DNA from: a virus
Taxonomy: Duplodnaviria > Caudoviricetes
Virus record (IMG/VR): IMGVR_UViG_3300003669_000091
Location: 1 to 62,004 of that record
DNA: 62,004 nt
Direction: 5' to 3' (one strand)
The notes under the pieces were generated by a model. It was not told the origin of the DNA. It saw nothing but the letters and a program-made list of their open reading frames with translations, and searched no databases. Position numbers and translations under genes: made by a program. Of this stretch, positions 8,197-41,146 are shown one piece after another (the first letter of the stretch is position 1; each line of letters starts with the position of its first letter).

Positions 8197-8237
8197 ATTT
8201 TCACGGGCGGCCCATTGCCACCCAGGCGGTGTTTTCC
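8197..8237 (-). promoter_or_regulatory. Predicted late promoter 1 (GGAAAAC-N28-GAAAAT)
   Basis: GTTTTCC at 8231-8237 on +; -10-like hexamer at 8202-8197; same spacing as six other intergenic sites. Confidence 0.75.
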
Positions 8238-8240
8238 GTT

Positions 8241-9041
8241 CTACCGAGAGGCTACATTCCATCCTTTCCAATCGTCGCGATCGAGAGCGGCGATGGAACA
8301 CAGCATCATCGGCACGAGCATCGATACGTGCTTTCCTTGAGAATCAACCGGAGACGAAATTGGTTGGCCGATGCTCTCGATGACCAGCGGCGCATAGGTT
8401 TTCCCTTTGTAGCGCATTGCGATCATCGTCGGCGCTTTCGATGGCAACAGGACATCCAGTGACGATAGATTCCCTCTTCCTGCTTCGATACCACGCGAGA
8501 TAATTGTTCCGTCAGGCGATAGAACTTCCGGCAACGACCAATTCACAAGCTGATCAATGGGCGCCTCCACCTCCTTAGCTGGATTGATCCAGGCGCGAAA
8601 CAAGGCGACTATCGGAATTTTAGCGGGCGCCATTCCGGTAAATACCTGCGTCGAATTCAGCTTCGTGATACCCGTTCTTCCCTCGAATTGATTCATGAAT
8701 TCGCTGGATTTTTTTGACAACTCGGAAGCATTTGCCTGACCATTTTTCCCATTCTTTTGGCCGTCTCCGAAAACAGCATCGAGCAATGGCTGAAATGCTC
8801 CAGACTGGAGCATGGCCAACAGCGCCGGAGCTTTCGACTCCGCTCCAGAGTTTTCAAACGGGCTGTTCCAGGAAAGCGCCATTTCAAAGTTGGCTTCAGT
8901 CAGCGGAGCCCACACCTCGATATTGCCGATCGACTTTCCCTTCCGATCTACCTCGTAGAATTTGGCGATCAGGTGGTCGTTGAGATCATCCCAATTTGAC
9001 TTCAGGATTGTCTTTACGGCGCTCGGCGGTGTTGCTGGCAT
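8241..9041 (-). CDS. Virion morphogenesis protein (tube-initiator/baseplate-like)
   Basis: 266 aa, beta-rich C-terminus (YKGKTYAPLVIESIG); position in the tail cluster. Confidence 0.5.
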   Translation of the reverse strand: MPATPPSAVKTILKSNWDDLNDHLIAKFYEVDRKGKSIGNIEVWAPLTEANFEMALSWNSPFENSGAESKAPALLAMLQSGAFQPLLDAVFGDGQKNGKNGQANASELSKKSSEFMNQFEGRTGITKLNSTQVFTGMAPAKIPIVALFRAWINPAKEVEAPIDQLVNWSLPEVLSPDGTIISRGIEAGRGNLSSLDVLLPSKAPTMIAMRYKGKTYAPLVIESIGQPISSPVDSQGKHVSMLVPMMLCSIAALDRDDWKGWNVASR

Positions 9042-9052
9042 GGCAATTCCTC

Positions 9053-9077
9053 AAAAAAACGGGCACCGAAGTGCCCG
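9053..9077 (-). terminator. Intrinsic terminator after the capsid-sheath operon
   Basis: Minus strand CGGGCAC-TTCG-GTGCCCG followed by T7. Confidence 0.85.
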
Positions 9078-9108
9078 AAAACCCGATCAACACAGGTGGA
9101 GACAACCG

Positions 9109-9798
9109 TTACTTGCCAAGGCCGAAGCGGCGGCGAATCTTGTTCGACTTCATGCGGCGGATCATGGCGCCTGCCGAATGAGACTTCATGCCAGCTTTGC
9201 GGATGGCGACCTTTTGTTTCGCAGAAAGACGAACCGTTCCGGAAATGCGCTTCTTGATGCGAACCTTCTTGCCCTTGCGGATCGCCATCACGTTCTTGTA
9301 AGCAGCATCGAACACCGCGCCTTGCTCATCATCGCCGAACACGAAGGCATCGATTTCCTCGGCAGCGGCCTCGTCGCCTTCCGGCAAGGCCGTGCAAACC
9401 AGATCCTTGACGCGATCGGCTGCAGCCGGTTCCCAGTCGTTCAGCAGGGCGCCGGCATCCTCGTCGGAGACGCCCTTGGCGACCAGATATTCCCAGGCGG
9501 CGTTCAAGGCCACTTCCAGCACGCTTTGCTCGTCTTCGGTGATTTCGCCGTCGTGGTTCTCGTCGGCTACACCGACCAGCATGGCCATCAGTCGATCAGC
9601 CGAGGTTTCACCCTCGTCCAGGTCGTCTGTTTCGCACCATTGCTGGACTGCGGCAACGGCCTTCATTGCGATATGGTATTCGGCGTAGGCATCGGCACCG
9701 GTGACGACGATTTCCGGGTCGGCATTGTCCAGCGCCGGATTGCGCTTGGTCGCTACGGCAGCAAATGCCTGGCGCATCAGTTGTTGGGTAGATTGCAT
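9109..9798 (-). CDS. Virion protein with acidic body and very basic C-terminus
   Basis: Start at ATG 9798 after AAGGA; EF-hand-like DENHDGEITEDE; K/R-rich tail. Confidence 0.6.
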   Translation of the reverse strand: MQSTQQLMRQAFAAVATKRNPALDNADPEIVVTGADAYAEYHIAMKAVAAVQQWCETDDLDEGETSADRLMAMLVGVADENHDGEITEDEQSVLEVALNAAWEYLVAKGVSDEDAGALLNDWEPAAADRVKDLVCTALPEGDEAAAEEIDAFVFGDDEQGAVFDAAYKNVMAIRKGKKVRIKKRISGTVRLSAKQKVAIRKAGMKSHSAGAMIRRMKSNKIRRRFGLGK

Positions 9799-9812
9799 GA
9801 TCTTGAGTTCCT

Positions 9813-11456
9813 TTACACGGTGAGGGTCTGGGTAACAGTGATCTGGCGGGCGCAACCGTCGTACCTGAGGGAGTACGAGTAATCGACCTTGTCATACGGT
9901 CGGTTTGCATTGGGCCGCACGTCGTACTTGTAGGCGGCGCCGTTCATCTCCGGAGCGCTCGACGGGACCAACCAATCGGCCGCCTGGCAATCCGCGAAAA
10001 AGACCCGCATGAAGTCCGCCATCCGACTCACGGCGACCTTGACCGGCAGTTGCTTAAGCGTCGCCGCAAAGCGTGTGATCACGTCATCCACGCTGGACGA
10101 CATATCGGCCACGGAAATCAACTTCTTCAGGCTGTTCTCGACCTGCGCACAGGTGAGCGAGTCCTTGAATACGTAGCGACCACCACCGGTGAATACTTCG
10201 TACAGCACCGGATTGATTTTGGCCTTGGCCAAGTCGTTCATTTCCGGATTGCTCGGCGAATACACCTGAGTGATACCGTTCCGCTGAATCGGCCATTCGC
10301 GGCCGGCAATCGGGTAGTTCTTGGCGGCGAACCCCTTGCCGTTGACCGCTGCGTTGCGACCGCAGGCATACGCAATGTTGAGCGTGGCAGTTCCGAAGTA
10401 TCCCTTGCCGTTCAAGCCAGTCGGGTCGTTGCTCTTCAACGGAGTCCAAAAGGCGTGAATCAGGTGTGCCGTCAGGCTGGCGCCCATATTCAACTGTTCG
10501 ACGAATGCGATAGCGGCCTCGGGAGTGAGGTTGCCAGGCACGTCGAAGCGCAATTGGCGGTTCGTATCGAACGACAACTGAGCAAGCTGCGCCAACAGCG
10601 CCGGCGACTGGCTGCCACCGGCCGAGATGTAGGCGTAGTTGTGGATGGTGCTCTGCAACTTGGCGCGAGCAGCCATCAGGTTGGTCGTCGTGTAGGTCGT
10701 CCCGCCTTCGATGAAGCACACGAGCGTTCCGCTCTTGGCCCACTTCTCGCGGCCATTCGCATCGTAGCCGTAGGCGCTGTGCGTGGTCGCGATGCTGATA
10801 ACCGAAGGATCGATGGAAACTTCGATCGCATCGGTCTGGCTGGCTACGATATCCGGCAGATAGGCCGAATTGCCGTAGTCATCCAGTGCTGCCGGGTTCA
10901 GGGAACCAAAGAACTCATGGCGCAGATCGCCAGCGCTGTCGCGGATACGCAGTGCGATTCTGTCGTTCGCCTGGGCCACGCCGCCAACTTTCTTGGTGTC
11001 AGCATGAAACTCCATCTGGATACCGTCGTTGTAGCACTCCAGATCCTTGACTGCGAGCAGGTACGGCGTGCCGGGAAGCACGGCGTTCGCGGTCCAATCG
11101 ACATTGTCCGCAGTGCCGGAATTCGGTGTGGCAATCGCGTACTTGATCACTGCGGAATCGGAAGCAAGGCGCTGGACTACCGCTTCGTAAGCTCCCTTGT
11201 TGAGAGCTTCAACCACTTGAACGTAGGCCTCGTTCAAGGCCGACACACGCATGGATTCGCCCTTGCCGATTTTCTTGATCACGTTGCCGCGATTGATCTT
11301 GAAAGGCTTGTCGATGCGACCACGAGTAGCACGCATCATGATGCCGAATACCTGATCCGAGTTGTCGCTGATGGTCGGCAATTCGGATTCGTCGCGCAGC
11401 GGGTTAAGCTGCACACCTGACTCGGCCCCGAGTTGTCGGTCGAAAGCGGTAGTCAT
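9813..11456 (-). CDS. Contractile tail sheath protein (P1-like)
   Basis: 547 aa; RGRIDKPF N-terminal motif, NDLAKAKINPV, C-terminal Y..RYDGCARQI. Confidence 0.8.
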   Translation of the reverse strand: MTTAFDRQLGAESGVQLNPLRDESELPTISDNSDQVFGIMMRATRGRIDKPFKINRGNVIKKIGKGESMRVSALNEAYVQVVEALNKGAYEAVVQRLASDSAVIKYAIATPNSGTADNVDWTANAVLPGTPYLLAVKDLECYNDGIQMEFHADTKKVGGVAQANDRIALRIRDSAGDLRHEFFGSLNPAALDDYGNSAYLPDIVASQTDAIEVSIDPSVISIATTHSAYGYDANGREKWAKSGTLVCFIEGGTTYTTTNLMAARAKLQSTIHNYAYISAGGSQSPALLAQLAQLSFDTNRQLRFDVPGNLTPEAAIAFVEQLNMGASLTAHLIHAFWTPLKSNDPTGLNGKGYFGTATLNIAYACGRNAAVNGKGFAAKNYPIAGREWPIQRNGITQVYSPSNPEMNDLAKAKINPVLYEVFTGGGRYVFKDSLTCAQVENSLKKLISVADMSSSVDDVITRFAATLKQLPVKVAVSRMADFMRVFFADCQAADWLVPSSAPEMNGAAYKYDVRPNANRPYDKVDYSYSLRYDGCARQITVTQTLTV

Positions 11457-11465
11457 GATCGCTCC

Positions 11466-11903
11466 TTAGCTTTCGTTCTGCTGGTTGGAATCAGCAGCCG
11501 TGGTTTCACCCGCCGACTTCGACTCTTCCGCCTGCTTCGACTCTTCGCCCTGGCCAGTCGCATCCGTGGAGACCTTGTCGGAAGCCTTCGCTTTGCCCTT
11601 CGGCTTCTCGATTTCTTCCACCGTCATCGCCTCCTCGTAGCGATTGAGTTCGGCGATCTGCTCCACATCGGTCGTGAAGGTTTGCAGTTGTTCGAAACTG
11701 TCGATCACCACCGTCGCGCAGGATTTTTCTTCGTCGCAGACGTGTCCGAGGAACAAGCCAGCAACCGGGAATACCACCTGGCGCGGCATGTGATTGATCA
11801 CCTTTACGGTGAGCGGAAACTTGGCACTCTTGAATGCCTCGCCGACAACATCGTTGGCGTCCTTCCCGGTCAGGGAAGGAGCGCCGATGATTACTTTACG
11901 CAT
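11466..11903 (-). CDS. Hypothetical virion-associated protein
   Basis: Good RBS (AGGAG); between capsid and sheath genes. Confidence 0.6.
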   Translation of the reverse strand: MRKVIIGAPSLTGKDANDVVGEAFKSAKFPLTVKVINHMPRQVVFPVAGLFLGHVCDEEKSCATVVIDSFEQLQTFTTDVEQIAELNRYEEAMTVEEIEKPKGKAKASDKVSTDATGQGEESKQAEESKSAGETTAADSNQQNES

Positions 11904-11928
11904 ATCGATTCTCCTTTACCCAGCCCGA

Positions 11929-13590
11929 TTAGGAAGGCATGTTGATGATGTTGATCAGAGCGGCGCCCTTGGCAGACGGACCGTGCGGATTCAACTCGGT
12001 GAAGCTGCGGGCGTAGTAGCCGGCGCCTTCGTTAAGGTCGCCACCCATGGCCAACGGCTTGATGACAGCCGGTGCCGCGTCGCCAAGCACGACCGGGTTG
12101 CGGGTGACATCCGTTGCCTTGCCAATCGACAGCACCTTGGTTGCCGTTGCGGTGTCGTACTGGTCCATGTTCGGCGAGTAATAAACGTCGTAGAGACCGA
12201 ACAGGCGGCCAGCGCGGAAGATGCCGGGGCGATCGGAGATACCGGACGACTGGAAGATTTCCGCCGGCAAGAGGCGACAAAACGCCACGAACTTCTTGCT
12301 GCCGTAGAGATGTGTGATGCCGTGGTTCATGGTTGCAATCGCCATCACTTGCGATGCGATGCCGATAGTCGCCGCAAATTCCTGGAAGACCTGGGCGCGA
12401 GTCTTCTGAGCGCCCTGATTGGCCCAATCGAAGTTGAAATCGATCTGGTTCTGCTTTGCGATCCGCATCATCAGACTGAGGGAGTCGAAATGACGTTCGT
12501 TCGCGACCTGAGCATTGATGGCGATGATGCTCTCGCTGTACGGATCGAGGCCAAGTTCGGCCGACATCTGGGTACGCGAATCCGGCGTAACGCGCGTCAG
12601 AACGCGCCACGGAGAAGCGAACAGCGAGTACATATCGACGTTGGTGATGATGCTCGGCGTGATGGAGGGATCACGCTCATAGTCGATGAAGCTGCGGACG
12701 TGGAATTCGTTTGCCACCGGGAGCTTCGGCGTGGTGGTCATCGCAATGTCGCCGGTATCCGTGTTGATCGTGCCGCCGATCTGATACTCGGTACCGGATA
12801 CGTTGATGCTGCCAGACACGGCAGAGGTGCCAGATCCGACCTTGCTGATTTCGACCGCAGCCAGTTGGCCGTTGACATAGACCTGAGTGCGACCACGCAT
12901 CAACTTGACGGCGCCGCCGTTCGAATCACAGGTTTCGTCGTTGGTCTGGACCTTCGTCAGCTTGCCGGTAACGGTGCCATCGACTGCGGACACGGTACAT
13001 TTGTGCGTGCGCACGGACGACACGTAGCGCTTGCCAGAGTACGACGCATCCATCACGCCGTTCTGGGCATATTCGCCGAAGGTATCGCCGGCGACATGGA
13101 CCATGATGGCCAGCTTGGCTTCGTTGCTGGAGATGTCCGCCGGCAGGTAATGTGCGAACGGGATGGCTTCGCTGAAGGCCGACATGATGGCAACAACCGC
13201 ACGATTCGGTTGCAGCGACAGGTTGTCGGCGTGCATCGAGGTGGAGTCGAGGGTGCCGGCTTCCTTGCGACCATCCGTGGTCAGGCCGTAGGCAAGGTGA
13301 AACCCGTATTCGGCAACGTCGGCCGGCATCGGGCAACCATGGCGTGCTTCGTATTCGTTGGCACCGTCCAGGATGGCGCGGTGGATGAACTGGCGGTTGT
13401 CTTCGCCAGCTTCGTCGAGAACCGCCAGCAGGGCGTCCGGAACTTTGACCCCGGCGATGCTCTGGTTCAGGGCAATGGCCATGAAGTCGTCAGCGGCGGC
13501 CGAATCGAACGTGCCAGACTTGACGGAACTTTCACGAAGGCCTTTGACGAATGCGCCGGCCTCGTTGGTGCTGCGCTTGTTGCTTTCCAT
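11929..13590 (-). CDS. Major capsid protein precursor (P1 gp23-like)
   Basis: About 553 aa, strong codon bias, first gene after a late promoter; start 13590 has SD GAGG (alternative ATG 13608). Confidence 0.8.
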   Translation of the reverse strand: MESNKRSTNEAGAFVKGLRESSVKSGTFDSAAADDFMAIALNQSIAGVKVPDALLAVLDEAGEDNRQFIHRAILDGANEYEARHGCPMPADVAEYGFHLAYGLTTDGRKEAGTLDSTSMHADNLSLQPNRAVVAIMSAFSEAIPFAHYLPADISSNEAKLAIMVHVAGDTFGEYAQNGVMDASYSGKRYVSSVRTHKCTVSAVDGTVTGKLTKVQTNDETCDSNGGAVKLMRGRTQVYVNGQLAAVEISKVGSGTSAVSGSINVSGTEYQIGGTINTDTGDIAMTTTPKLPVANEFHVRSFIDYERDPSITPSIITNVDMYSLFASPWRVLTRVTPDSRTQMSAELGLDPYSESIIAINAQVANERHFDSLSLMMRIAKQNQIDFNFDWANQGAQKTRAQVFQEFAATIGIASQVMAIATMNHGITHLYGSKKFVAFCRLLPAEIFQSSGISDRPGIFRAGRLFGLYDVYYSPNMDQYDTATATKVLSIGKATDVTRNPVVLGDAAPAVIKPLAMGGDLNEGAGYYARSFTELNPHGPSAKGAALINIINMPS

Positions 13591-13646
13591 AAGATTTTCC
13601 TCTTCCATTGGTTGGCCGGCTGTCGGCTAAGTAAAGCTGCCGGGCC

Positions 13647-13687
13647 ATTGTTCACCTTGGTTTTGGAGGGAAAATCCGCCGTTTTCC
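13647..13687 (-). promoter_or_regulatory. Predicted late promoter 2 (GGAAAAC-N28-AACAAT)
   Basis: GTTTTCC at 13681-13687; hexamer at 13652-13647. Confidence 0.75.
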
Positions 13688-13692
13688 GTGTT

Positions 13693-15678
13693 TTAAGCGC
13701 TTGAGTATCCGCCTGTCACGACATGGGCGATTCGGCGGTTGGAAAGGTCCTGGCCAGGCTCATTGGCCGGCGGCGTGACGGTGATGTTTCGTCCTGCGTC
13801 ATCCGATGAAAGTGGGACATGAATCTGAGGGGCATCGGGAATCTGCGGGGGAGCCGGCATGGCTGGCATCGTGGGCAGCGGACTGGTGGCAATCTGCGGA
13901 TTTTTTGACACTGCCGAATATGTCTTGATGTAGCCGGAGGCATCCTTCGCCATTTGTTCGTAATATTTGAGCGGAGTGGTCCCGTTGGCATCTGCCTTTC
14001 CAGTTCCGCCTTTGGATACCTCCAGGGCGCCACCAATGCCAGCAATGTGGCGAGCCTTCAACAGGCCGGCAATCTTCCCCTGCGAGTCACCAGGCTGGAT
14101 CGCGCCTTTTCTCACCAATTCGGCATATGCCTTATCGGAATTGACCTTGAAGGCGCCGTCCTGAATATCAGCCGACGCCAAGTACTTTTCCTTGCTCATG
14201 CCGGATACCCAGTTATCCGGATTGTCCAGAAACTTACCCATGCCTCCGGATTTAGCCCACTCCCACTCAGACTTGAATCCACCAGACTTGATCGCGGCCT
14301 TCACTGCGGCACTACCGCCTTTGATCAGACCGGCATCGGCCAGCCACCCGGCGCCAGCTTGATAGCGGCCCATGTATCCCTGCTTGTTGAAGATGCCAAG
14401 TTCCCCGCCGCTACTTTCTGTTTCTGTTGTCGAGGCAACCAAAGCACGGGTATGCGCATCATCAAGGCCATCGATATTCCCTTGCGAGTATTCGGCCCCA
14501 GTGCGCAATGCCCGATCCTTTACCTTGTTCCCCTTCAATCCAGAAAAAAATCTGGCTATTCGACCTTTCTTCGCCTCGGCGTCCTGGCGCTCAAGTTCTT
14601 GATAGGTTCGATTCAGCCGGTAGTTGTATTCAGGCGACGCGGAATCGACGTTGGCGGCTGCCATCGCCGCACGCGCCCGGTCCATCCGCTCATACTCGTC
14701 GGTACCGTTCTGCTCGCGGCGATTCCTCTCTCGAATGGATTCAATTTCGGCATCCTTGTCGATACCGATCTTCTTCAATGCTTGCTTTGCCGGATCAGCA
14801 AGACCCTTCTGAATCCCCTCGGCAATATCCTTGTCAGCCGATGAGTTTCCGGTGAAGAACTTAACCAGGATTGCAATCCCTGCTGCAGCCGCAGTGAGTG
14901 CCGTTGCCATGGGAATCAGAAGCGGGCCAAGGCGTGTCACTGCAGCAATCAAGGCGGATGTCCACGACACGCCTCCGTCCTCGCCTGCGGCAGGCTTATC
15001 TTCAATCGCCTTCAGGCTTTTGACCGTTGCCTTTTCGTAGGTCGTCTGATCAGTACGGATGCCCTTGAGTTCATCCCACAACCGACCGAACCACGTGCTC
15101 TGCCTATTTTCTTCAGCATCGCCAAACATCGTCTTGTAGCCGCGCTTCAATGGCTCTGCGACTTCGTTGAATGCTTTGAATGTCGGGTCAGCTTCTTCTG
15201 AGTTTGAAATTCCTTCGGTTACTGCCGAAGCGACCCGCTGCGCAAAGCCGTCAGATGACATCAACAGCGAACTTCCGCCATCGACTCCGCCTGAGGATCG
15301 CGCGGATTGCGAACCGACTTCACCTGATCGCCCTATGAAGCGACCTCTTCCATCACGGATCCTTGTCGCAACCAGATTATTTGGCGCGACAGTTCGGCTA
15401 TCCGGCTTGGCCGCCTTGACCATTGCCGACATCTGCCTATTTACCGCAGCCGATATCTCTGCCTGAACAGCTGGAGTGGAACTGCGAACCGGCGCAACCG
15501 GCGTTGCTGGAGCTCTGCTCGTCCTGGTCGGAACCTGCGGCGAACTTCCCGATGACCCAGCAAGCGCCTGACGCATGGCGCGCACATCTGACTGGATCGA
15601 ACCAAGCAATGAAACCGCACGCTGAAGATCAATCGGGTCGCCAATCAGAAAGCCATCTGAATCGTGTTGGAGAGTCAT
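13693..15678 (-). CDS. Tape-measure-like protein with lysozyme/lytic-transglycosylase-like domain (P1 Sit-like role)
   Basis: Helical Ala-rich body, central hydrophobic segment, TETESSGG...YMGRYQAG lysozyme-fold motif. Confidence 0.65.
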   Translation of the reverse strand: MTLQHDSDGFLIGDPIDLQRAVSLLGSIQSDVRAMRQALAGSSGSSPQVPTRTSRAPATPVAPVRSSTPAVQAEISAAVNRQMSAMVKAAKPDSRTVAPNNLVATRIRDGRGRFIGRSGEVGSQSARSSGGVDGGSSLLMSSDGFAQRVASAVTEGISNSEEADPTFKAFNEVAEPLKRGYKTMFGDAEENRQSTWFGRLWDELKGIRTDQTTYEKATVKSLKAIEDKPAAGEDGGVSWTSALIAAVTRLGPLLIPMATALTAAAAGIAILVKFFTGNSSADKDIAEGIQKGLADPAKQALKKIGIDKDAEIESIRERNRREQNGTDEYERMDRARAAMAAANVDSASPEYNYRLNRTYQELERQDAEAKKGRIARFFSGLKGNKVKDRALRTGAEYSQGNIDGLDDAHTRALVASTTETESSGGELGIFNKQGYMGRYQAGAGWLADAGLIKGGSAAVKAAIKSGGFKSEWEWAKSGGMGKFLDNPDNWVSGMSKEKYLASADIQDGAFKVNSDKAYAELVRKGAIQPGDSQGKIAGLLKARHIAGIGGALEVSKGGTGKADANGTTPLKYYEQMAKDASGYIKTYSAVSKNPQIATSPLPTMPAMPAPPQIPDAPQIHVPLSSDDAGRNITVTPPANEPGQDLSNRRIAHVVTGGYSSA

Positions 15679-16586: not shown

Positions 16587-16589
16587 TGA

Positions 16590-18131: not shown

Positions 18132-18161
18132 GGCGCGCCACGGTCTGAGGACAATGGCGCG

Positions 18162-18202
18162 ATGGTAGGCTTGCTATGGTGCGGAATATGGCTTGGTTTT
18201 CC
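18162..18202 (-). promoter_or_regulatory. Predicted late promoter 3 (GGAAAAC-N28-TACCAT)
   Basis: GTTTTCC at 18196-18202; hexamer at 18167-18162. Confidence 0.75.
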
Positions 18203-18230
18203 GCGAGAAGACTGGCTATTTCGGCAAGGC

Positions 18231-18673: not shown

Positions 18674-18807
18674 TTCAGTGATGACCTGAGCGCAATGCGC
18701 CGTGTGATGGGCGACAGCATGCGCACCCTCAAGCGCCGGATAGATGCCGCGAAATGTCCAAACCAATTTCCCAGTGATCGACCAGCAAAGCGCCCCATGT
18801 AGTTCAT
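18670..18807 (-). CDS. 45-aa basic protein missing from the ORF track
   Basis: ATGA overlaps with both neighbours; MNYMGRFAGRSLGNWFGHFAASIRRLRVRMLSPITRRIALRSSLK. Confidence 0.55.
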   Translation of the reverse strand: MNYMGRFAGRSLGNWFGHFAASIRRLRVRMLSPITRRIALRSSLK

Positions 18808-23961: not shown

Positions 23962-23989
23962 GATTGCTCCTACCGTTGATCGATGACCA

Positions 23990-24030
23990 ATGATAGGAGT
24001 CGCTTCATCACCAAATTTCGGCGGTTTTCC
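23990..24030 (-). promoter_or_regulatory. Predicted late promoter 4 (GGAAAAC-N28-TATCAT)
   Basis: GTTTTCC at 24024-24030; hexamer at 23995-23990. Confidence 0.8.
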
Positions 24031-29500: not shown

Positions 29501-30099
29501 ATTCCGAGCGGCGTCGCGTTGGTTCCCCAATGCACCTTGTTGGTCATTTTCATGGATTCGTGTCCTTCGAAAGGGAGGTAGTCTTTGACGGCCGGGCGCG
29601 ACTTGTTGCCGTGCTTGAGCCACCATTTGAATTGGGCAATTGACATGGAAACGAGGCTTTTGAGCCCATCCCAACCTCGGTCGTAGCTGTCCAGATACGC
29701 ACGCTTGGCCATGGCCTCATCGATGAAGCCAAGCATCACCTTGTGTTCGTCAAACTTGCCTGCAACGTACTGATTTATTACGTAGACCATTTCGGCCTGA
29801 GGCCACGGACCAATAAAGCAATCGACCGCGTCTCCGTCTGCGCCCTTGGTGCCGCTCAGATATCCGTAGTGGGCGGCCAAGCGGGTACGCCACGACTTTC
29901 CGGAAGGATCGACGCCACATCGAAATGAGTTGCGCGGCTGCTCTATCGCAATGGGCAGGCCATGCAGCGAGACGCGCCCGACTTTATAGTTCCCCGCTTC
30001 ACATTGCGCCTGGGATGGGGTGGGAATCGGGTTGTTTCCGAAGGCTCCAGAGTGAGCGCCGGCCTCAATCCGTGAAAAGATGTCGTGGTGGTTTGGCAT
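26569..30099 (-). CDS. darA: DarA-like antirestriction polyvalent protein (InPPase-like + DarA core + LPD3-like + DarA C-terminal domains); predicted leaderless
   Basis: HYGYLSGTKGADGDAVDCFIGP..FDEHKVMLGF; LSDGQTISILLHNP..WLLNKKDITIVVAPERG; TGNELG..HYD; DRALFQSVIDG C-terminus. Confidence 0.8.
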   Translation of the reverse strand: MPNHHDIFSRIEAGAHSGAFGNNPIPTPSQAQCEAGNYKVGRVSLHGLPIAIEQPRNSFRCGVDPSGKSWRTRLAAHYGYLSGTKGADGDAVDCFIGPWPQAEMVYVINQYVAGKFDEHKVMLGFIDEAMAKRAYLDSYDRGWDGLKSLVSMSIAQFKWWLKHGNKSRPAVKDYLPFEGHESMKMTNKVHWGTNATPLGMTLDQVLYEIRRDDAEDGLVFDSICVNDFREIADEVLALDALVTPYVAIERTMNVINTVMKRAGGSVTPLSFQVSDPYRFRGVVNVAVIWELSDGQTISILLHNPDSTPSKLAPDDELISWKWLLNKKDITIVVAPERGRDLNVREVARRVMLLADKNSAAFRRANIRRAERMDRIQALKDEIAGMESELAGLLHQIEVSTVEAESMQVQSQPAMSRFRELEKQANGTLWGIGNPDYYGVIQDEAGELPDDFMPADSNQQMAMAMGALAKEWGQAYAVQINVMKDTPFRVIKALYADGSGVGSDWSATADEAYNMVKDASAVSAVVPFDPTMAENYASVMASDDLQALHQDALNTFFNVRIDAVRSALGALGWEGRAPIDARLYKEDSEVDFTFKKFGENIIGYSVNEMVDDLTKAPEVIAAEVDAAALAETARRKEAIAQAAAEEAAKSAAQPATVTVTGNELGEFPDTEDGKKSLRAAAKDFLVAMRGEWVDCPILGKQVEIRQRGIKETIAFSADPRKLKIIPAIKTIISTAIASIPEENFKKHKKPEVFGYYRLKNSVSLAGNVIALDVIVEEDLHGAFHYDLLLDTDEVETKTALDSSSAASVSALPPDHNSGNTDTQNIGADGIEVNGAPATLDDSNGHLVFNLFIEGEAPEVIEEETTADALTMADIAEQLKAIGWEVSLDERSLVATIYFGDSGAIDVSVSWHFGEDGKAVDIDQDRLDPEAYPSAKSIARYIDEEFRYYVDDVIAETKDGAEFAGKTVEFAKSAMIVRDTTRRLGGNAHFGDFNYSMSDGLFDDAESDQGADTGIPALPYGICAQIIKDGQGIGRARIDEQGETIIYTGMSGANPVAVSGAHAAGAASYGGIVDMVESLFSSSPAPVSEASTVNDSPPVVEPQPDPVQPVDDPQKSADRALFQSVIDGTVSDISDPDLADLLEAAFMRHQDDAEMAGLFERAVDSYQAAMLAATANLA

Positions 30100-30105
30100 T
30101 TGGCG

Positions 30106-30146
30106 ATTGTGCGGCCCGCCACGACACCCCAATTTCTTGGTTTTCC
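30106..30146 (-). promoter_or_regulatory. Predicted late promoter 5 (GGAAAAC-N28-CACAAT)
   Basis: GTTTTCC at 30140-30146; hexamer at 30111-30106; ATG 30099 follows after 6 nt. Confidence 0.8.
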
Positions 30147-30153
30147 GGGCGAC

Positions 30154-30648: not shown

Positions 30649-30669
30649 TTTGAAGTCCTCTCGTTTGAA

Positions 30670-32189: not shown

Positions 32190-32195
32190 TGACGG

Positions 32196-32561
32196 TCAGA
32201 CCGTCACGATGGCCATCGAAAATGCCTGTCTCGGCATTTCTGCCTCAGCACGTTCGATGTCGCCCGACACCTCGGCAACTTGACGGCCAAATGCATCGAT
32301 GCCCATCACTCGCGAAGCCTCCAGCTGAATAGCCGTCTCGCGCTCGACGTACAGAAGGAACAATGGTCGGATCAGCGCCCATTCCGAATCGGTCAGTTTC
32401 GAGTTGGCACTGATTGATCCGGATGATGTGGATAGCTCGGAGAATCCAGAATAGAAGCGTGTGGCGGCCACGGCCTGAGCCAAAACGACATCGCTATCCA
32501 GCATAACGCCCACGGGGCGTTCGCTGGATAGAAAGGCATCGACAAGGTCAGAGACTGTCAT
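32196..32561 (-). CDS. Virion morphogenesis protein (head-tail adaptor-like)
   Basis: Helical 121 aa in the tail operon. Confidence 0.5.
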   Translation of the reverse strand: MTVSDLVDAFLSSERPVGVMLDSDVVLAQAVAATRFYSGFSELSTSSGSISANSKLTDSEWALIRPLFLLYVERETAIQLEASRVMGIDAFGRQVAEVSGDIERAEAEMPRQAFSMAIVTV

Positions 32562-32564
32562 GGC

Positions 32565-33065
32565 TTAGCTGTAGTTCGACGAATTCCCGGGGATCACTTC
32601 CCCGAAATAATGGAAGAACAGCGTGCCGTTGAAGGTCAGAACCTGGGAGCGGTTTTCCCAGTCGCGGTCCGGATTGTCCATCTGCATGAAGCAATCGACG
32701 ATGCGCTTGGCGCGCAGGAACTTGACCGGCGTTCCTTCGTAAATCTTGGCGTTGAACACGCCACCCTTGGCCAGCAAATCGATGAGCATCTTATCGACCG
32801 AGCCAGCGATGGTTTCGTAAAAGGCCACAGCCCCTTGCTGATGAACCTTCGCCTGCTGCGGTTGCCAGGCGCCGCCGCCCAACGGCGTTGATATCTCGAT
32901 TTCTCCGGCCGGAGAGAGTTCAGGCCAAGGAGCCTGCTTCGCCAACAGGTACATCTGCTCGAAACCTTCAATTTCGAAGGTGAAGTCAGAAGCAATGGCC
33001 TTGGCACCCTGACCGGCAGCGCCATCATAGAACTGCTTGAGGTAAGCGGCATTGGAGACGGTCAT
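32565..33065 (-). CDS. Tail tube-like protein
   Basis: 166 aa, strong codon bias, first gene after a late promoter; beta-rich tube-like pattern. Confidence 0.6.
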   Translation of the reverse strand: MTVSNAAYLKQFYDGAAGQGAKAIASDFTFEIEGFEQMYLLAKQAPWPELSPAGEIEISTPLGGGAWQPQQAKVHQQGAVAFYETIAGSVDKMLIDLLAKGGVFNAKIYEGTPVKFLRAKRIVDCFMQMDNPDRDWENRSQVLTFNGTLFFHYFGEVIPGNSSNYS

Positions 33066-33102
33066 GATTTCCTCGCATTGGTGTGGTTTTCCATGCGAGT
33101 AA

Positions 33103-33143
33103 AGTCTGAGGCGGCCGTTTACCTCATATTTGCGCCGTTTTCC
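33103..33143 (-). promoter_or_regulatory. Predicted late promoter 6 (GGAAAAC-N28-CAGACT)
   Basis: GTTTTCC at 33137-33143; hexamer at 33108-33103. Confidence 0.7.
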
Positions 33144-33149
33144 GATGTG

Positions 33150-33458
33150 CTATCGTCGTTTTGAGAGCACCTTTCCAAGGTATCCGATTGACCGGATGAC
33201 ATCGTTCAAACGCGAGACGATGGCTGATTGCGCCTTCCCCTCGGCCTCTCTTCCCTTTTTCCAGGAAGCAAACGCCTTTCCGGTGAAGAACTGGCCGGCG
33301 TCGCTGGGGCACATCTTGAAGCCAAGCGGCAGAGGGGTATTTGCGTACAGCGCCAGGTTATGCAACATCGCCTCGAGACTGTCCGATAATTCTGCGCGTG
33401 AATTCCGAGATACAGGAATAGGCAGGAAATCGGGCCGGAGGAAGGTCTGCGCCTCCAT
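33150..33458 (-). CDS. Small tail-assembly-chaperone-like ORF (start 33458 or 33368, or a frameshift extension)
   Basis: Overlaps the 3' end of 33358-34119; LALYANTPL..GFKM.PS...F resembles chaperone C-terminal extensions. Confidence 0.45.
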   Translation of the reverse strand: MEAQTFLRPDFLPIPVSRNSRAELSDSLEAMLHNLALYANTPLPLGFKMCPSDAGQFFTGKAFASWKKGREAEGKAQSAIVSRLNDVIRSIGYLGKVLSKRR

Positions 33459-34119
33459 CCCCCCCTTTCCTTGGTAGGAATACTGGTCCTGATTCAGAAA
33501 ATTCAAGTTGGAACAGGTGCGACAGCTTGACTCGCGCCGCTTCGAACATGGCAACCATGACTGCGAAATCGCTTTCTGCATACGCCATCAGTATCTTCAT
33601 GCGATCAGCCAAGGCCTCATCGCTGATACTTACGCCTACCTGCTCTCTGTCCTGATCACGAATGAACTGGGCAGCCATGGCCCCGACCATCCAATGGAGG
33701 CGTCCTGATATTCCAGAAATCTCTCCGTTCAGTCGTTCGATCGACTCCGCCATGGCACCGGTCAGATGCTGCAAAAGCCAGACATCTCCACCGTGCTCAC
33801 CGGCCGCCACAGTCGGCGACTTGTGGTCGACGGAAGCATCCAGATAGTCCGAATACCTCCCATTGCCAACTGAAAAATCCGGTCCATCGTCGGATACCGA
33901 TGCCAGGTAGTGCGCAGTGGCCATGGCTCTCTCTTGGACAGTCCAATCAGCCGGGTCAGCTACGCCCTTGATGCTCTGTGTGGCTCGACGCAAGAACTCC
34001 GTGGTGGAAGCTTGCTCGAGACTATCGGGGATTGCCATTACAGCCAGCGAATCACCGATGGCAAGTTCTCGCAACTGAAGCGTCAGTCGGCGCGTACGCA
34101 GGGTCGGGATATGGATCAT
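33358..34119 (-). CDS. Baseplate/tail assembly protein
   Basis: 253 aa; LQLRELAIGD and WTVQER motifs; in the tail operon. Confidence 0.55.
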   Translation of the reverse strand: MIHIPTLRTRRLTLQLRELAIGDSLAVMAIPDSLEQASTTEFLRRATQSIKGVADPADWTVQERAMATAHYLASVSDDGPDFSVGNGRYSDYLDASVDHKSPTVAAGEHGGDVWLLQHLTGAMAESIERLNGEISGISGRLHWMVGAMAAQFIRDQDREQVGVSISDEALADRMKILMAYAESDFAVMVAMFEAARVKLSHLFQLEFSESGPVFLPRKGGDGGADLPPARFPAYSCISEFTRRIIGQSRGDVA

Positions 34120-34628
34120 GGTTCCTCGCTTGGAGCGATTACGTGCAAGTCGTCGCGTCTGTTGCAGACAAAGCGTCGCGTGTAGGGTGGAATACCGATA
34201 GTCGTTTCGGTATCGACAATCTCGAATGCCAGTTTCACGATGTCACCGATAATCAGGTAGAAGACATCACCCTTTGCCGGTTCGAACCATTTTTCGGTAC
34301 CGGGTTCTTCCTCTGGCTCAATCAGAAAACGGAACTCATCAACTCCGGACGGCCCGTTGCTTGCATCCCGGCGTTCGTTCAATTGCCCTGGCGAGAATTG
34401 CTCGGCCGGAAGCACGTAGCCATTGCCGATCCATTCCCAACTGATGTCCTCTTCGTCCTCAGAACTGATCACCCCAAGGCCGCCCATAGTCGGCATGCCG
34501 GACTCTTTCGGAGCATCGCGATTGATCGTCTTTCGAAAGACCTGGCAATTCGCGGAGTTCGGATGGTGAATCACCACGTTTCTCGCCATCTTGTTGATGG
34601 CATTCGGTACGCCATTCAGCATGCGCAC
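34116..34628 (-). CDS. Virion morphogenesis protein (head closure-like)
   Basis: Beta-rich, PAKGDVFYL motif. Confidence 0.5.
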   Translation of the reverse strand: MRMLNGVPNAINKMARNVVIHHPNSANCQVFRKTINRDAPKESGMPTMGGLGVISSEDEEDISWEWIGNGYVLPAEQFSPGQLNERRDASNGPSGVDEFRFLIEPEEEPGTEKWFEPAKGDVFYLIIGDIVKLAFEIVDTETTIGIPPYTRRFVCNRRDDLHVIAPSEEP

Positions 34629-35704
34629 TATCCTTTCTGAGCCGCTGCGGCCGCTGCGGCAATTTGTGCATCGGTAAAACCAAGCGCCTTCATGCCGGCG
34701 ATCTGTGCATCGCTAATTCTTCCACTTGAAAGTGCTGTTGCAATACTACGTGATGCAGCGGCAACACGCTTTGGCGAAGGCGCCTGTTCAGCGGCTTTGG
34801 CAAGTGCTCTGCGAGTACGCGCTGCTACTCGGTCGTTATCTCTTCGCCTCTTTGCTGCGTCGATATCTCGACCGCGCTGTTTGGATGCCGCCGCAGCCGT
34901 CTCCGCCTGTTTCTGTGCAAGATTGGCCTTCCCTGTCTCGGATGCGCGGGTCTTCTCGATCATCCTTGTGAGGAAATTGAGAACGCCAGGGCCCGACTCG
35001 ATTTCAGCCATCACACGCAAGACGTGCTTACAGGCAACGCCATGGAGGTTCGGGTTACGAATCTTCGGGTAGCCTGATTCTGGCCGACCCGCATTGAATC
35101 CTCCGATGCTCGCAATGTAGCGGAACCAGTAGCGGTGCCTTCCACAGTCGCAGTCGAACGCCAGGGGCTGTTTCCGGAGCCATTGAGCAGACTTCTTTGG
35201 TGCATCATTTGCTCCGATTGCCGCGGCAAAGTACGACATGAAGGCAACGGTCACATGATGACGCGTAACGTCAGAATCGGGACCGGCATTGGTCACAAAG
35301 CGGACTTTCTCGCGGAGGGATGAAACTGCCACCGCATGCCGAATCTGAGTGTTTGCCTTTTCACGGTCCTCGGCGAGAGAGAAATCAAGCACCTTGCGCG
35401 CGGTGATCCCACCCTTGTACTTCCCCTGCAGCATTCGGATGTTGTGCCGATAGGCTGCAAGGTCGTCGGCTGTAATCGCCCGTACGGTACCGCCGAGGGT
35501 GGTGTAAAGCAGTCGCGTGGCGTCGTATTCGCCCTGGACATCATTCGGATTGAGGATGATTGACTGAGGGTGGCGTGCCGCCTCTGTCCGCTGCTGCAGG
35601 TCAGCCTTTGCACGTTGCTGCTGTTCCTTGACCGATCCCTTGACCTTGCCAAGCCAGGATGCTGTCGACGATTTGCCGGTACTCTTACCCTTTGGTTTGG
35701 CCAT
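34628..35704 (-). CDS. SWIM-type zinc-finger phage protein
   Basis: FDCDCGRHRYWFRY...GVACKHVLRV (CxC...CxH). Confidence 0.7.
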   Translation of the reverse strand: MAKPKGKSTGKSSTASWLGKVKGSVKEQQQRAKADLQQRTEAARHPQSIILNPNDVQGEYDATRLLYTTLGGTVRAITADDLAAYRHNIRMLQGKYKGGITARKVLDFSLAEDREKANTQIRHAVAVSSLREKVRFVTNAGPDSDVTRHHVTVAFMSYFAAAIGANDAPKKSAQWLRKQPLAFDCDCGRHRYWFRYIASIGGFNAGRPESGYPKIRNPNLHGVACKHVLRVMAEIESGPGVLNFLTRMIEKTRASETGKANLAQKQAETAAAASKQRGRDIDAAKRRRDNDRVAARTRRALAKAAEQAPSPKRVAAASRSIATALSSGRISDAQIAGMKALGFTDAQIAAAAAAAQKG

Positions 35705-35705
35705 G

Positions 35706-36044
35706 CTACTCAGCCCAGACCGGAGCGCCGCTGTTGCGATATTCCGCGATCGACTCGAAACCAGCCATCCGCTTGATTTGCATCAGCTGCCCTTCAGTCG
35801 GGAGGGTCAGCCTGACCATCGGGATACCAACGTCAGGGGAACTGATGCCTGCTGCAGCCATCACGGCCAAGTACTCGTCACGCCGGCCATAGACGCGCTG
35901 GGAAATGAGGGTCGGGTCCATGACTTCGTCAGGCGTCACCTCATGCCATATCGCCTGCTCCCACATTTTCGTACGCAGAGCAAAATCACGCACCGCTCGA
36001 TAGAACCGGTTGGCGGCGCCGGTATCCTTGTCGATAGCACTCAT
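35706..36044 (-). CDS. Baseplate gpX/gp53 LysM-like protein
   Basis: EVTPDE..DPTLISQRVYG....LAVMAAAG...LTLPT. Confidence 0.6.
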   Translation of the reverse strand: MSAIDKDTGAANRFYRAVRDFALRTKMWEQAIWHEVTPDEVMDPTLISQRVYGRRDEYLAVMAAAGISSPDVGIPMVRLTLPTEGQLMQIKRMAGFESIAEYRNSGAPVWAE

Positions 36045-36544
36045 ATCGAGACAATCCGGCCTTGCATGATGGCGACCTGGGCGTCGTAAATGGTATCCAT
36101 CATGTCGAATACCTTCGCGGCAGTGTCGGCCTTACGGTAGGCATACCAACAGCTGGCCAGTGCCGCCATCTGCAAACAACTGATCCCTTCCGAAACGCGA
36201 TATTTAGGGCCGCGCGTGTCAGCGCCATCCTTCTCGATCACGGAATCAGGATTCGCTCGCTGGGCTTGCTGACCGAACACCAGGCGAGGGCTTTTTTCAT
36301 CCGTCGCGACGCCAGACAGCAAGGCATAGTAGGCCACGATGGCATCGGCGATATCGTCGTTGGAAAACGTTGCGTCGCGCTCGATACCTGGCTCGTTGGT
36401 GATCACCATGCAATCGCGCAACCGATCGCGCCGGAATGCCGCCTCGCGACTGATGACCAAAACACCCGTATCTTCGGCATAGGCCGAGTAGAGCGTCATC
36501 ATCTTCCCGCCAAAACCAGAAATGGTGGTCTGAATCGGGATCAC
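36041..36544 (-). CDS. Hypothetical protein in the morphogenesis operon
   Basis: Overlaps both neighbours by 4 bp. Confidence 0.6.
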   Translation of the reverse strand: MIPIQTTISGFGGKMMTLYSAYAEDTGVLVISREAAFRRDRLRDCMVITNEPGIERDATFSNDDIADAIVAYYALLSGVATDEKSPRLVFGQQAQRANPDSVIEKDGADTRGPKYRVSEGISCLQMAALASCWYAYRKADTAAKVFDMMDTIYDAQVAIMQGRIVSI

Positions 36545-37269
36545 GGGCGCGGCTCCGTATTGACGCCGACAACCTCGATCACCAGCGGATAGCCAGCCGG
36601 GTCGGTCGTGCTGCCCACAGTGCCCTGCCCGTCGTTCGGCTCATTGAGCTTCGGTGCGGAGAAAAGCGGGATCGAGGCCTTGAGTGTGAGATCGGCCGCC
36701 AGCACGGAAAGGTTTTTGTTCCCTGTCTTGACTTCAATGGCCGGAACTTCCGGTGTCTCGATCTGGACCGGGAATGGCAAGGCCTCGCCGGCGAAGCTGT
36801 ATTGGGCGAAGAACCGGCGATTATCGACGGCATCCACGAACAGCGAGAACTGCGAAGCCAGTGATTTGGCCGTCGCTTCATCCACAGCGCAGAACGCGAC
36901 CTGGGCGCGGATGTCGCCGCCCATAACACGCAGGCCGAAACAGCGCTCCTTCTCGTCGCCCGGAAGAATCACATCCATGCGCTCTGAAATCTGGCGTCCG
37001 AAGTCACGACCGGTCGGGATGTAGTCCTTCGCCATGGCGACGATCACAACCGGTAGCTTCGGCGGCTGGGTAGGCGCTTGGTCTGTATCGTTGCGCTGCC
37101 ACGAGGAAACCATTTCCTCGACCTGATCAATCATCCGGCCCGGGGCCCAGACGCATGACTTTGCTAGGCCGCGCACAACGAATTCATGCATCGGCTTGGT
37201 TGTCGGTACCAGCGACGAATAGAACTCGGCGATGTAGGTGCCGAAGGCTTGTTTGACCTCGATGGTCAT
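36541..37269 (-). CDS. Tail completion/terminator-like protein
   Basis: KLPVVIVAM motif; position after the protease gene. Confidence 0.5.
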   Translation of the reverse strand: MTIEVKQAFGTYIAEFYSSLVPTTKPMHEFVVRGLAKSCVWAPGRMIDQVEEMVSSWQRNDTDQAPTQPPKLPVVIVAMAKDYIPTGRDFGRQISERMDVILPGDEKERCFGLRVMGGDIRAQVAFCAVDEATAKSLASQFSLFVDAVDNRRFFAQYSFAGEALPFPVQIETPEVPAIEVKTGNKNLSVLAADLTLKASIPLFSAPKLNEPNDGQGTVGSTTDPAGYPLVIEVVGVNTEPRP

Positions 37270-38096
37270 CAGCCCCTACCGGCCTTTGAGAAGGAAGCGA
37301 CGATGCGATCGTATTCGGCTGCTTGCGCCGGATCGGTCTTCGATGGCTCAATGATCCGCGGCAGAGCAGACTGTCGGAACAATGCAGAGTCGCGACGGAT
37401 GCGCTCAACAGGCTCGATGCTTACCGAAAATCCAGCAGTTCCATCCAGGGTAAGAATAGGCTTCATTTTTCCGCTGGCCAGCATGGACAGCAATTGCTCG
37501 TTCTCGGCGCGCAGGTTGTCGCAGGTATCGGCCAAGGCATCGTTGAGCGCCGTCGCCGAATCGTACAGCGCCAGCATGCCGCTAACCTGCTCTTTGTAGG
37601 ACGCTGAAGCCATGTCGTCGAGCGTCATGCCTTCCGTATCGTCCATGGTCAGTTCGTAGCCACGGTTACCCGAGTAGTTCGGGCTCAGCACATAGTCGAA
37701 ACCGTAAAACCGGTTGTTGATTTCATCGATGGCGGAAGAGAACCCGCCGGTCTTTCCGTTGTACAGCCGAGCAGCAAGCTGCCCCGCTTCCGTGTCCAGG
37801 AATTCGACCTTGTGTTCGATGGTTCCGTCCTGGTAGGCGCGGAGATGCGTCGAAACGATTGCTGGTTCTACCTTCTGTGCCTTGCCATTGGCGATGCCAC
37901 CCTCGGCGGCATTCAGGCCCCAGATGCGGCGAGGCCAGTGACCGTAGAACCCGACCAGGTCGCGTAGCTTTACCCGCTCCTGACAGGCCGGGCCGTTGAT
38001 CTCGCTGCAGATGGCCTGAATGTTGAAATTCCGCTCTTTACCGGTGAAGCGCCGGCCGCGGTCCTTCAGGTTGTATTTGATGATTGGCGTTTCCAT
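37269..38096 (-). CDS. pro: Prohead (head-processing) protease, P1 Pro-like
   Basis: GFYGHWPRR, IEHKVEFLDTEAG, GGFSSA, FYGFDYVLSPNY; start ATG 38096 after GGAGAG. Confidence 0.8.
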   Translation of the reverse strand: METPIIKYNLKDRGRRFTGKERNFNIQAICSEINGPACQERVKLRDLVGFYGHWPRRIWGLNAAEGGIANGKAQKVEPAIVSTHLRAYQDGTIEHKVEFLDTEAGQLAARLYNGKTGGFSSAIDEINNRFYGFDYVLSPNYSGNRGYELTMDDTEGMTLDDMASASYKEQVSGMLALYDSATALNDALADTCDNLRAENEQLLSMLASGKMKPILTLDGTAGFSVSIEPVERIRRDSALFRQSALPRIIEPSKTDPAQAAEYDRIVASFSKAGRG

Positions 38097-38121
38097 TGCG
38101 CATCTCTCCGGTGATGCGCTG

Positions 38122-38162
38122 ATGTTATGGTCGCTCGGTTGATGCTTTCCTCGTTGTTTTCC
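38122..38162 (-). promoter_or_regulatory. Predicted late promoter 7 (GGAAAAC-N28-TAACAT)
   Basis: GTTTTCC at 38156-38162; hexamer at 38127-38122. Confidence 0.8.
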
Positions 38163-41144: not shown

Positions 41145-41146
41145 GG

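Follow-up and report, generated by a model that had tools for sequence, protein, structure and literature searches.

A GGAAAA Element at a Fixed Distance From a -10-Like Hexamer Marks Seven Candidate Activator-Dependent Late Promoters in a P1-Like Provirus

Introduction

The IMG/VR provirus record IMGVR_UViG_3300003669_000091 (62,004 bp, 56.6% G+C, estimated completeness about 70%; analyzed over its full length and referred to below as the window) carries nearly all of its genes on the minus strand. Its virion genes are distantly P1-like and include genes for PmgB-, PmgG-, Hdf-, and DarB-like proteins. On the minus strand, seven copies of the heptamer GGAAAAC are each followed, after exactly 28 nt, by a hexamer of the form NANNNT, and every one of these composite sites falls in an intergenic gap that precedes a virion or lysis gene block. 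This locus raises the question whether the seven sites are promoters of late transcription and, if so, which protein reads the GGAAAAC element. An earlier inspection of the DNA letters, referred to below as the original prediction, had proposed that they represent a new class of activator-dependent late promoters.

Phage late promoters with a -10 hexamer, no -35 box, and an upstream activator site are a known kind, represented by those of phages P1 and Mu. According to excerpts of PMC10695390, P1 has 11 late promoters, in which a 9-bp box at about -22 is read through the protein Lpa. Excerpts of PMC2582627 describe four late promoters in Mu, with -10 hexamers and no typical -35, at which the activator C binds a 16-bp imperfect dyad that is centered at -43.5 and overlaps the -35 region. 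The claim of novelty thus stood for the motif, of which no published description was found in a search that left subscription journals and supplementary files aside, and did not stand for the kind of promoter. In the excerpted text of one phage paper, GGAAAAC appears as a listed ribosome-binding site (PMC2628397).

The analysis presented here indicates that the seven sites are, with high likelihood, activator-dependent late promoters. As an explanation of the whole, late promoters used by sigma-70 RNA polymerase together with a 224-aa phage-encoded activator are likely to account best for the observations, which are all drawn from sequence and structure comparison.

Results and Discussion

Seven Composite Sites Precede the Virion and Lysis Genes

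GGAAAAC occurred 21 times in the window, against an expectation of 7.46 ± 2.65 copies, and none of 100 shuffled sequences reached 21. The composite GGAAAAC-N28-NANNNT occurred seven times, always on the minus strand, while 0.38 ± 0.55 copies were expected and at most two were found in any of 100 shuffles. A recount of the sequence returned the seven coordinates, the seven hexamers, and the exact 28-nt spacing as originally predicted. The remaining ten minus-strand copies of GGAAAAC had no NANNNT at this distance. Six in-gene copies had correctly been named as lacking the spaced hexamer; four minus-strand copies (33086, 45164, 50882, and 60151) had been missed, and none of these showed NANNNT at N28. 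The copy at 45164 is a near-miss (GGAAAAC-N28-TTTAAT at 45170-45129 on the minus strand) that has T for A at the second hexamer position and was not counted as a site; it lies 31 nt ahead of a 79-aa excisionase-like gene and an Ant-like anti-repressor gene. Scanning the window with one mismatch and spacers of N27 to N29 yielded no additional convincing site.

At six of the sites, an open frame of at least 94 codons stops 3-28 nt ahead of the motif. The seventh (38162) lies between the protease-like gene described below and a plus-strand open reading frame (ORF) at 38257-38553. This 98-aa ORF, which has no Pfam match, is located between TerL and the protease-like gene and runs opposite to all of its neighbors; the first predicted promoter adjoins its start.

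All seven predicted promoters are on the minus strand and are numbered in the direction of transcription. Promoter 1 (38162..38115; motif 38162-38156, hexamer TAACAT at 38127-38122, predicted start near 38115) precedes a protease-like gene (38096-37269) that matches phrog_30560 and whose homologue in Xanthomonas phage Rb1 is annotated as prohead core protease. Its block continues with baseplate and tail genes to a PmgB-like gene and ends at about 33150. Promoter 2 (33143..33096; motif 33143-33137, hexamer CAGACT at 33108-33103, predicted start near 33096) precedes the tail tube gene (33065-32565, phrog_1120) and four more genes, the last of which is Hdf/DarA-like (30648-30154). Promoter 3 (30146..30099; motif 30146-30140, hexamer CACAAT at 30111-30106, ATG at 30099) heads genes for a 1176-aa DarB-like/transglycosylase protein and, after it, an 870-aa LPD1 protein. 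Promoter 4 (24030..23983; motif 24030-24024, hexamer TATCAT at 23995-23990, predicted start near 23983) is followed by six genes from 23961 down to 18231, the first of which encodes a 107-aa protein; this block is absent from Rb1. None of its genes had a family match above cut-off and PHROGs gave nothing for four of them, while its 604-aa protein showed beta-helix matches below the Pfam cut-offs. Promoter 5 (18202..18155; motif 18202-18196, hexamer TACCAT at 18167-18162, predicted start near 18155) is followed by the portal gene (18131-16590; phrog_1497, E 5.9e-151) and two further genes. Promoter 6 (13687..13640; motif 13687-13681, hexamer AACAAT at 13652-13647, predicted start near 13640) has the major capsid gene (13608-11929) as its first gene, with the sheath gene (11456-9813) and others further down the block. 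Promoter 7 (8237..8190; motif 8237-8231, hexamer GAAAAT at 8202-8197, ATG at 8190) heads a 94-aa gene, baseplate genes, fiber-like genes, and the endolysin gene (1618-875). The operons originally named were recovered for the protease-like, tube, DarB-like, portal, capsid, and baseplate-to-endolysin blocks; the "appendage" label given to the block of promoter 4 found no family match behind it.

The absence of a canonical -35 box, also part of the original prediction, was borne out. At 16-19 nt spacing from the hexamer, the best match to TTGACA was only 1-3 of 6 bases at all seven sites, which is no better than at random positions, and none of the seven had a TG extension. Between 7.8 and 27.7 kb, canonical sigma-70-like sites were scarce (3, against 8.8 ± 2.5 expected). 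Since no -35 box is available, an activator bound at GGAAAA would be needed for promoter function.

When the order of genes was compared with that of Rb1 in a table of tblastn matches, six of the seven sites (33143, 30146, 24030, 18202, 13687, and 8237) fell at breaks in gene order, and the promoter-headed blocks look like units that have been reshuffled between relatives. This placement would suit a reading of the motif as a DNA site for recombination at module boundaries, or as a repressor operator, rather than for promoter activation; in P1, asymmetric repressor operators are scattered over the genome. Such a reading is very improbable. Two further breaks relative to Rb1, after 35706 and after 34116, carry no site, and a 6-bp core is too short for homologous exchange. 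For a repressor, a position of -47 to -41 in fixed phase to a -10 hexamer, with no -35 box, is not one that blocks polymerase.

The Composite Site Is Conserved Ahead of the Same Genes in Relatives

Rb1, the sole isolate of the clade found among 50,697 phage records, shares 51% identity with the window in its major capsid protein; P1 gp23 shares 24%, and capsid matches in these records other than Rb1 were all at or below 27%. In prophages and metagenomes the capsid family is large, with 545 proteins at E ≤1e-20 among 8000 candidates scored. A scan of viral contigs with the capsid as a single protein found no relative, and an alignment of capsid proteins was needed. With this alignment, 42 prophage loci (40-68% G+C), several of which are fragments of 1-8 kb, were fetched from beta- and gamma-proteobacterial genomes.

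The exact composite GGAAAAC-N28-NANNNT was found 72 times in forward and once in reverse orientation in these loci, and was present in 26 of the 42. Among 131 distinct forward copies of GGAAAAC, 62 had NANNNT at exactly N28, compared with 2-16 at other spacings from 18 to 41; on the reverse strand, only 1 of 42 copies had it. The base after GGAAAA varies upstream of the capsid gene among relatives, and the conserved core is therefore GGAAAA, the C at the seventh place being particular to the window. With the seventh base left free, there were 139 forward and 9 reverse composites in 44 sources (the window, Rb1, and the 42 prophage loci); in 70 IMG/VR loci, the corresponding counts were 112 and 14. 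Rb1 alone had 8 forward, no reverse, and no control matches, together with two variants: GGAAATC ahead of darA and an N27 spacer ahead of the tube gene.

Conservation was also assessed gene by gene, by scoring composites with N27 to N29 within 260 nt upstream of homologues in Rb1, the 42 prophage loci, and 63 viral loci. A composite preceded 59 of 60 capsid genes, 50 of 56 protease-like genes, and 29 of 30 tube genes, as well as smaller sets of portal (5/8), DarB-like (3/5), and 94-aa-gene (3/4) homologues. Control genes gave low counts: TerS 0/59, TerL 4/66, sheath 3/49, and baseplate wedge 0/3. The spacer was exactly N28 for 34 capsid, 39 protease, and 18 tube genes, which shows that the spacing varies by one base (27-29) with 28 as its mode. 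Conservation of motif and spacing in relatives thus agreed with the original prediction, except that the core is one base shorter and the spacing less rigid than proposed. In addition, the recurrence of motif, strand, and spacing at the same genes in distant relatives, and their absence ahead of intra-operon genes, point to the activator-dependent regulon that had been suggested.

In many relatives (including L059-L081), a further composite lies inside the regulator gene discussed below, some 300 nt into that gene and roughly 300 nt ahead of TerS. It falls beyond the 260-nt limit, and the 0/59 count for TerS does not cover it. The site is absent from the window, which has GGAGAAAAC at that place. 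A few relatives, among them Rb1 (at 690) and L067 (at 9843), have a composite directly ahead of the regulator gene. A group of GGAAAAC...TATATT sites located about 6 kb after the capsid gene in relatives had at one point been read as a promoter lying within a gene and retained in spite of codon bias. This reading was withdrawn, because the PmgB-like gene shares no more than its final codons (G-K-P) with the motif and the hexamer falls between genes. No such site occurs at the corresponding place in the window, though the PmgB-like protein is conserved.

Shape of the Signal and Predicted Transcription Start

To describe the signal beyond its core, 155 sites were retained after thinning at 75% identity, GGAAAA being fixed by the search. 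Position -1 of the motif was mostly C (82 of 155), and the seventh base was C in 66, A in 46, G in 22, and T in 21 sites. Positions +9 to +11 were nearly free of T, +13 to +16 were rich in A/T, and +18 and +19 were rich in G/C; from +20 to +33, each column carried at most 0.22 bits. The G that had been noted four bases after the motif is present at six of the seven window sites and did not extend to relatives, in which this position is only poor in T (A34 C55 G59 T7 of 155). The hexamer favored A at its fourth and fifth places.

A/T content showed a period of about 10-11 bp, with peaks over the motif, positions +13 to +16 and +23 to +26, the hexamer, and positions +47/+48, which suggests that one face of the helix matters. 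These features also bear on the possibility that GGAAAA is an A-tract resembling an UP element, which would recruit the alpha subunit of RNA polymerase with no phage activator involved, timing being set in some other way. If transcription starts 7 nt past the hexamer, the four A's of the motif lie at about -45 to -42, presumably the place of the proximal UP subsite, and the A/T peaks within the spacer (+13 to +16 and +23 to +26) point to a single helix face. This possibility is nevertheless improbable: in hosts of 40% to 67% G+C, the G pair varies no more than the A's do, which a rule for A-tracts does not explain. Furthermore, an UP subsite alone, with neither a -35 box nor a TG extension, is not expected to make a working promoter.

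The position of start codons was informative about the hexamer. Among 91 non-redundant sites, the first ATG or GTG opening a frame of at least 60 codons lay exactly 6 nt past the hexamer in seven and 7 nt past it in two, and every other distance below 20 nt occurred at most once. This peak of start codons 6 nt after the hexamer indicates that the hexamer acts like a -10 box. The hexamer-6 nt-ATG layout is found at the window sites 30146 and 8237 and at their Rb1 counterparts, 51754 and 65025. An ATG at this distance fits a -10 box with transcription starting 7 nt past it, on the first base of the ATG itself. The rise in A/T content at +47/+48 also supports such a start. The mRNAs from promoters 3 and 7 (ATG at 30099 and 8190) are thus probably leaderless, and the recurrence of the pattern suggests that leaderless late mRNAs recur in the clade. 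A start 7 nt after the hexamer would place GGAAAA at about -47 to -42.

The statistics for a 5' hairpin shared by leaders of the capsid gene were modest. A stem opening at nucleotide three of the predicted transcript was present in 12 of 25 leaders, the mean z was -1.0, and z was below -1.5 in 10 of 25; in the window, the capsid leader hairpin had a z of +0.13. Capsid-leader hairpins (in L010-L050) differ in sequence among relatives, and several relatives have an intrinsic terminator just ahead of the capsid promoter.

The same distances argue on whether the motif could act in RNA, as a processing or translation signal, or be a chance or compositional effect, either of which is scarcely credible. 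GGA-rich words can resemble ribosome-binding sites, and a GGAAAAT copy at 2487 in the window is one. The motif itself lies 60-110 nt ahead of most start codons, at a distance that is fixed to the hexamer and not to the start codon, and no Rfam family matched. Chance is excluded by the shuffles, the spacing peak, and the gene-wise test.

A 224-aa Helix-Turn-Helix Protein as Candidate Activator

Between an HNH/YbcO-like nuclease gene (48022-47525, minus strand) and TerS (46803-45655, minus strand), the window encodes a 224-aa protein (47481-46807, minus strand) that is the candidate reader of GGAAAA. Its model (pLDDT 80) shows an Xre-type helix-turn-helix at about residues 39-100, followed by a 120-residue C-terminal helical hairpin. 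Profile and fold matches met in a five-helix DNA-binding domain of the cro/cI type. The profile matches comprised ImmR (E 7.7e-8), phrog_8, and HTH_31 (E 1.8e-5; 25.4 bits, below the Pfam cut-off of 27). In Foldseek searches the whole model had no match at E <1e-3; the helix-turn-helix alone matched, with C.AhdI, C.BclI, ImmR, and SinR as its closest folds (target TM 0.76-0.87, and 0.83-0.87 for C.AhdI, ImmR, and SinR; best E 3.4e-3).

Several comparisons link this protein to the motif. Among the regulator-type proteins of the window, it is the only one with an Rb1 homologue at E <1e-5 (41% identity), and homologues were present in all five prophage genomes tested. Seventy viral loci also carried homologues, and in most of the 63 strong matches TerS was the next gene. 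In these 63 loci, 89 composite sites occurred in 572.5 kb downstream of the regulator gene and 18 in 493 kb upstream of it, an approximately fourfold difference in density, and 46 of the 63 had at least one site downstream. The recognition region, GYxNSSKLAKIE, was nearly invariant in 27 aligned sequences, which matches the invariance of GGAAAA.

Structure prediction supported pairing of the 224-aa protein as a dimer. The homodimer model scored 0.63, while the best of three controls scored 0.00; of 30 proteins solved as pairs, 20 reached the mark, as did 1 of 23 solved as single chains. The runs agreed in at least 90% of contacts, with a partner pLDDT of at least 77.

Taken together, these data suggest the following mechanism. 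Host sigma-70 RNA polymerase would use all seven sites, with the nAnnnT hexamer, mostly resembling tAnAAT, as the -10 box. The activator would bind GGAAAA at about -47 to -42 relative to the start, which is a helical turn above the would-be -35 position. Transcription is predicted to start 7 nt past the hexamer; two of the seven promoters have the A of a start codon there and would give leaderless mRNAs. Each promoter would drive a single block of virion or lysis genes. The proposed activator is the 224-aa Xre-type protein, whose gene closes the early operon just before TerS. As a dimer, it may use one subunit to hold the strong GGAAAA half-site while the other covers a weak T-rich stretch about 11 bp downstream, from where the second subunit could touch sigma region 4 or the alpha subunit in the manner of a class II activator.

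The chances for and against the 224-aa protein being the activator are evenly balanced. Its principal competitor, which is unlikely, retains the late promoters and assigns GGAAAA to another phage protein, such as an Lpa-like factor that binds RNA polymerase, a remodeler of sigma, or a phage sigma factor. With about 70% of the provirus in the record, such a factor could be encoded outside it, and family matches are lacking for many of the small genes in the window; moreover, the asymmetric site contrasts with a candidate modeled as a symmetric dimer. Searches of the window, in a record that is about 70% complete, gave no match to the Mor/C family (PF08765) at E up to 0.1 and no six-frame match to P1 Lpa, and sigma region 4 (Sigma70_r4_2, PF08281) was likewise without a match in the window. 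A 28-nt spacing is also unfit for a -35/-10 pair read by a single sigma factor, and the 224-aa protein is, as described above, the only regulator-type protein shared with Rb1 at E <1e-5 and was present in every relative tested. Promoters of the ECF-type sigma factors, with elements 16-18 bp apart, would imply conservation at that distance; nothing was conserved 16-18 bp past the motif, and the peak was at 28.

A number of observations weigh against sigma-70 late promoters served by the 224-aa activator. The first concern the protein. Its link to the motif is an association within one lineage, and a second gene arrangement, seen in L101 and similar loci, still holds the same virion genes and is not independent. 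The incompleteness of the record leaves room for a different factor, and a predicted symmetric dimer has to be reconciled with a site that lacks a clear dyad. The mean match to the inverted half-site TTTTCC peaked at 1.9 of 6, against a baseline of about 1.3, and at any one offset at most 6 of the 155 sites matched in five or more bases. No clear second copy of the motif, inverted or direct, was found; there is only the weak T-rich stretch at +13 to +16, with no upstream partner. Others concern the promoters. Some hexamers are weak, such as CAGACT of promoter 2 (3 of 6 matches to TATAAT), and in the window the terminase genes and the regulator gene have no composite site. A at position 2 and T at position 6 of the hexamer were required in most counts, so that their invariance in tables is by construction and these positions are tested only by the N28 spacing peak. 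Finally, many of the related loci are close kin, and shared descent still inflates counts after thinning of the sites at 75% identity.

Comparison With Known Late Promoter Systems

The layout of P1 promoters was taken from the GenBank annotation and from excerpts of PMC10695390 and PMC8198154. Like P1, the window has a separate promoter ahead of each of many late operons, 11 in P1 according to PMC10695390 and 7 predicted in the window, and Rb1, as a member of the clade, has 8 exact sites and 2 variants. Both systems combine a -10 hexamer, according to the annotation of P1, with no -35 box and a short conserved upstream element. The order nuclease-regulator-TerS-TerL mirrors pdcB-lpa-pacA-pacB of P1. 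However, the P1 box lies 4-9 bp from the -10 hexamer in the annotation, whereas GGAAAA lies 28-29 bp upstream of it in the window and its clade, in which the positions around -22 are unconserved. Nor was the motif enriched in P1, with 5 forward and 3 reverse matches where a control pattern gave 1 and 5. The original view that the element differs from the Lpa type was therefore confirmed. Neither BLASTP (E 74) nor hhalign (probability 0.4%) found similarity between the 224-aa protein and Lpa.

In position, the element would resemble the Mu C site if transcription starts 7 nt past the hexamer, GGAAAA then being centered at about -44.5. It differs in that one 6-bp half dominates the signal of the clade and the dyad is weak, in contrast to the 16-bp dyad given for Mu in the excerpted source, and in that the window has no Mor/C family match.

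Lambda cI at PRM and the C proteins of restriction-modification systems are activators of the Xre/cI type whose sites overlap the -35 region. In fold, the candidate's helix-turn-helix comes nearest to two such C proteins, C.AhdI and C.BclI, and also to ImmR and SinR. Unlike these small activators, the 224-aa protein adds a 120-residue helical hairpin, and its proposed target is asymmetric and present at 7-10 promoters rather than one. In P2, 186, and P4, one small activator (Ogr, B, or Delta) turns on several late operons with a poor -35; the sites are TGT-N12-ACA dyads near -55, and the readers are zinc-finger proteins. A small zinc-finger gene beside TerS in Rb1 had no homologue in the window at E <1e-5, with no window search aimed at the Ogr-type family.

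A broader proposal follows from these comparisons. In a near-uncultured P1-like clade of beta- and gamma-proteobacteria, a hitherto undescribed family of activators, combining an Xre helix-turn-helix with a dimerizing hairpin, may occupy the slot of Lpa, with some 7-10 late promoters rewritten to an asymmetric GGAAAA at about -44, several of them leaderless, and their blocks reshuffled. This proposal is tentative, its probability falling slightly below an even chance. If the assignment of the activator is true, a regulator would have been swapped for an unrelated one at the same genomic position and every target promoter would have changed with it; the resulting compact activator-promoter pair may also serve as an orthogonal expression switch. 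The 224-aa protein would then be a candidate master switch for virion production. The signal itself provides a simple rule for locating late operons in hundreds of related prophages and viral contigs, relatives of the provirus spanning Burkholderiales, Rhodocyclales, Methylococcales, Halomonas, Pseudomonas, and other groups.

Gene Order and Other Features of the Window

Read in the direction of transcription, the gene order opens with a cI-like repressor gene on the plus strand (60149-61012). It continues with a CII-like gene, two large DNA-methylase-domain genes, a PAPS-reductase-like gene, replication genes, and NinB, before the nuclease, regulator, and TerS genes described above. Further downstream are an insert of 5.5 kb (40149-45655, minus strand), TerL (40138-38561, minus strand), and the virion and lysis genes. 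The early operon (52752-59308, minus strand) encodes a 907-aa N6/N4-type and an 833-aa C5-type DNA-methylase-domain protein, as well as a 364-aa PAPS-reductase-domain protein, a combination that suggests DNA modification functions.

TerS and TerL are adjacent in Rb1 and are separated in the window by the 5.5-kb insert, which holds many small ORFs without a family match. PHROGs gave nothing, or only families of unknown function, for ten called ORFs between the two genes. The insert also contains the 79-aa excisionase-like gene (44859-45098, minus strand) and the Ant-like anti-repressor gene (44098-44856, minus strand), a pair covered by matches to phrog_2790 and phrog_63.

Within a replication-protein gene (50327-51415), the hexanucleotide TCCCTG (plus strand) is repeated perfectly in tandem for 8.8 copies at 50822-50874; the coding strand of this repeat would yield a Gly-Gln repeat. 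Near the end of the block of promoter 1, two minus-strand open frames, 33150-33581 and 33358-34119, overlap by about 220 nt, and both have tblastn matches in Rb1 (Rb1 41629-41913). The second of these in the direction of transcription (33150-33581) probably starts at the ATG at 33311, which would give a protein of 53 aa. Its frame appears to be conserved upstream of this ATG as well, which may reflect an overlapping start or a frameshift. The best terminator-like hairpin of the late region (9060-9077, minus strand; 7 pairs, 6 of them G-C, followed by seven T) sits between a 248-aa gene and the PmgG-like gene, within the block of the capsid promoter.

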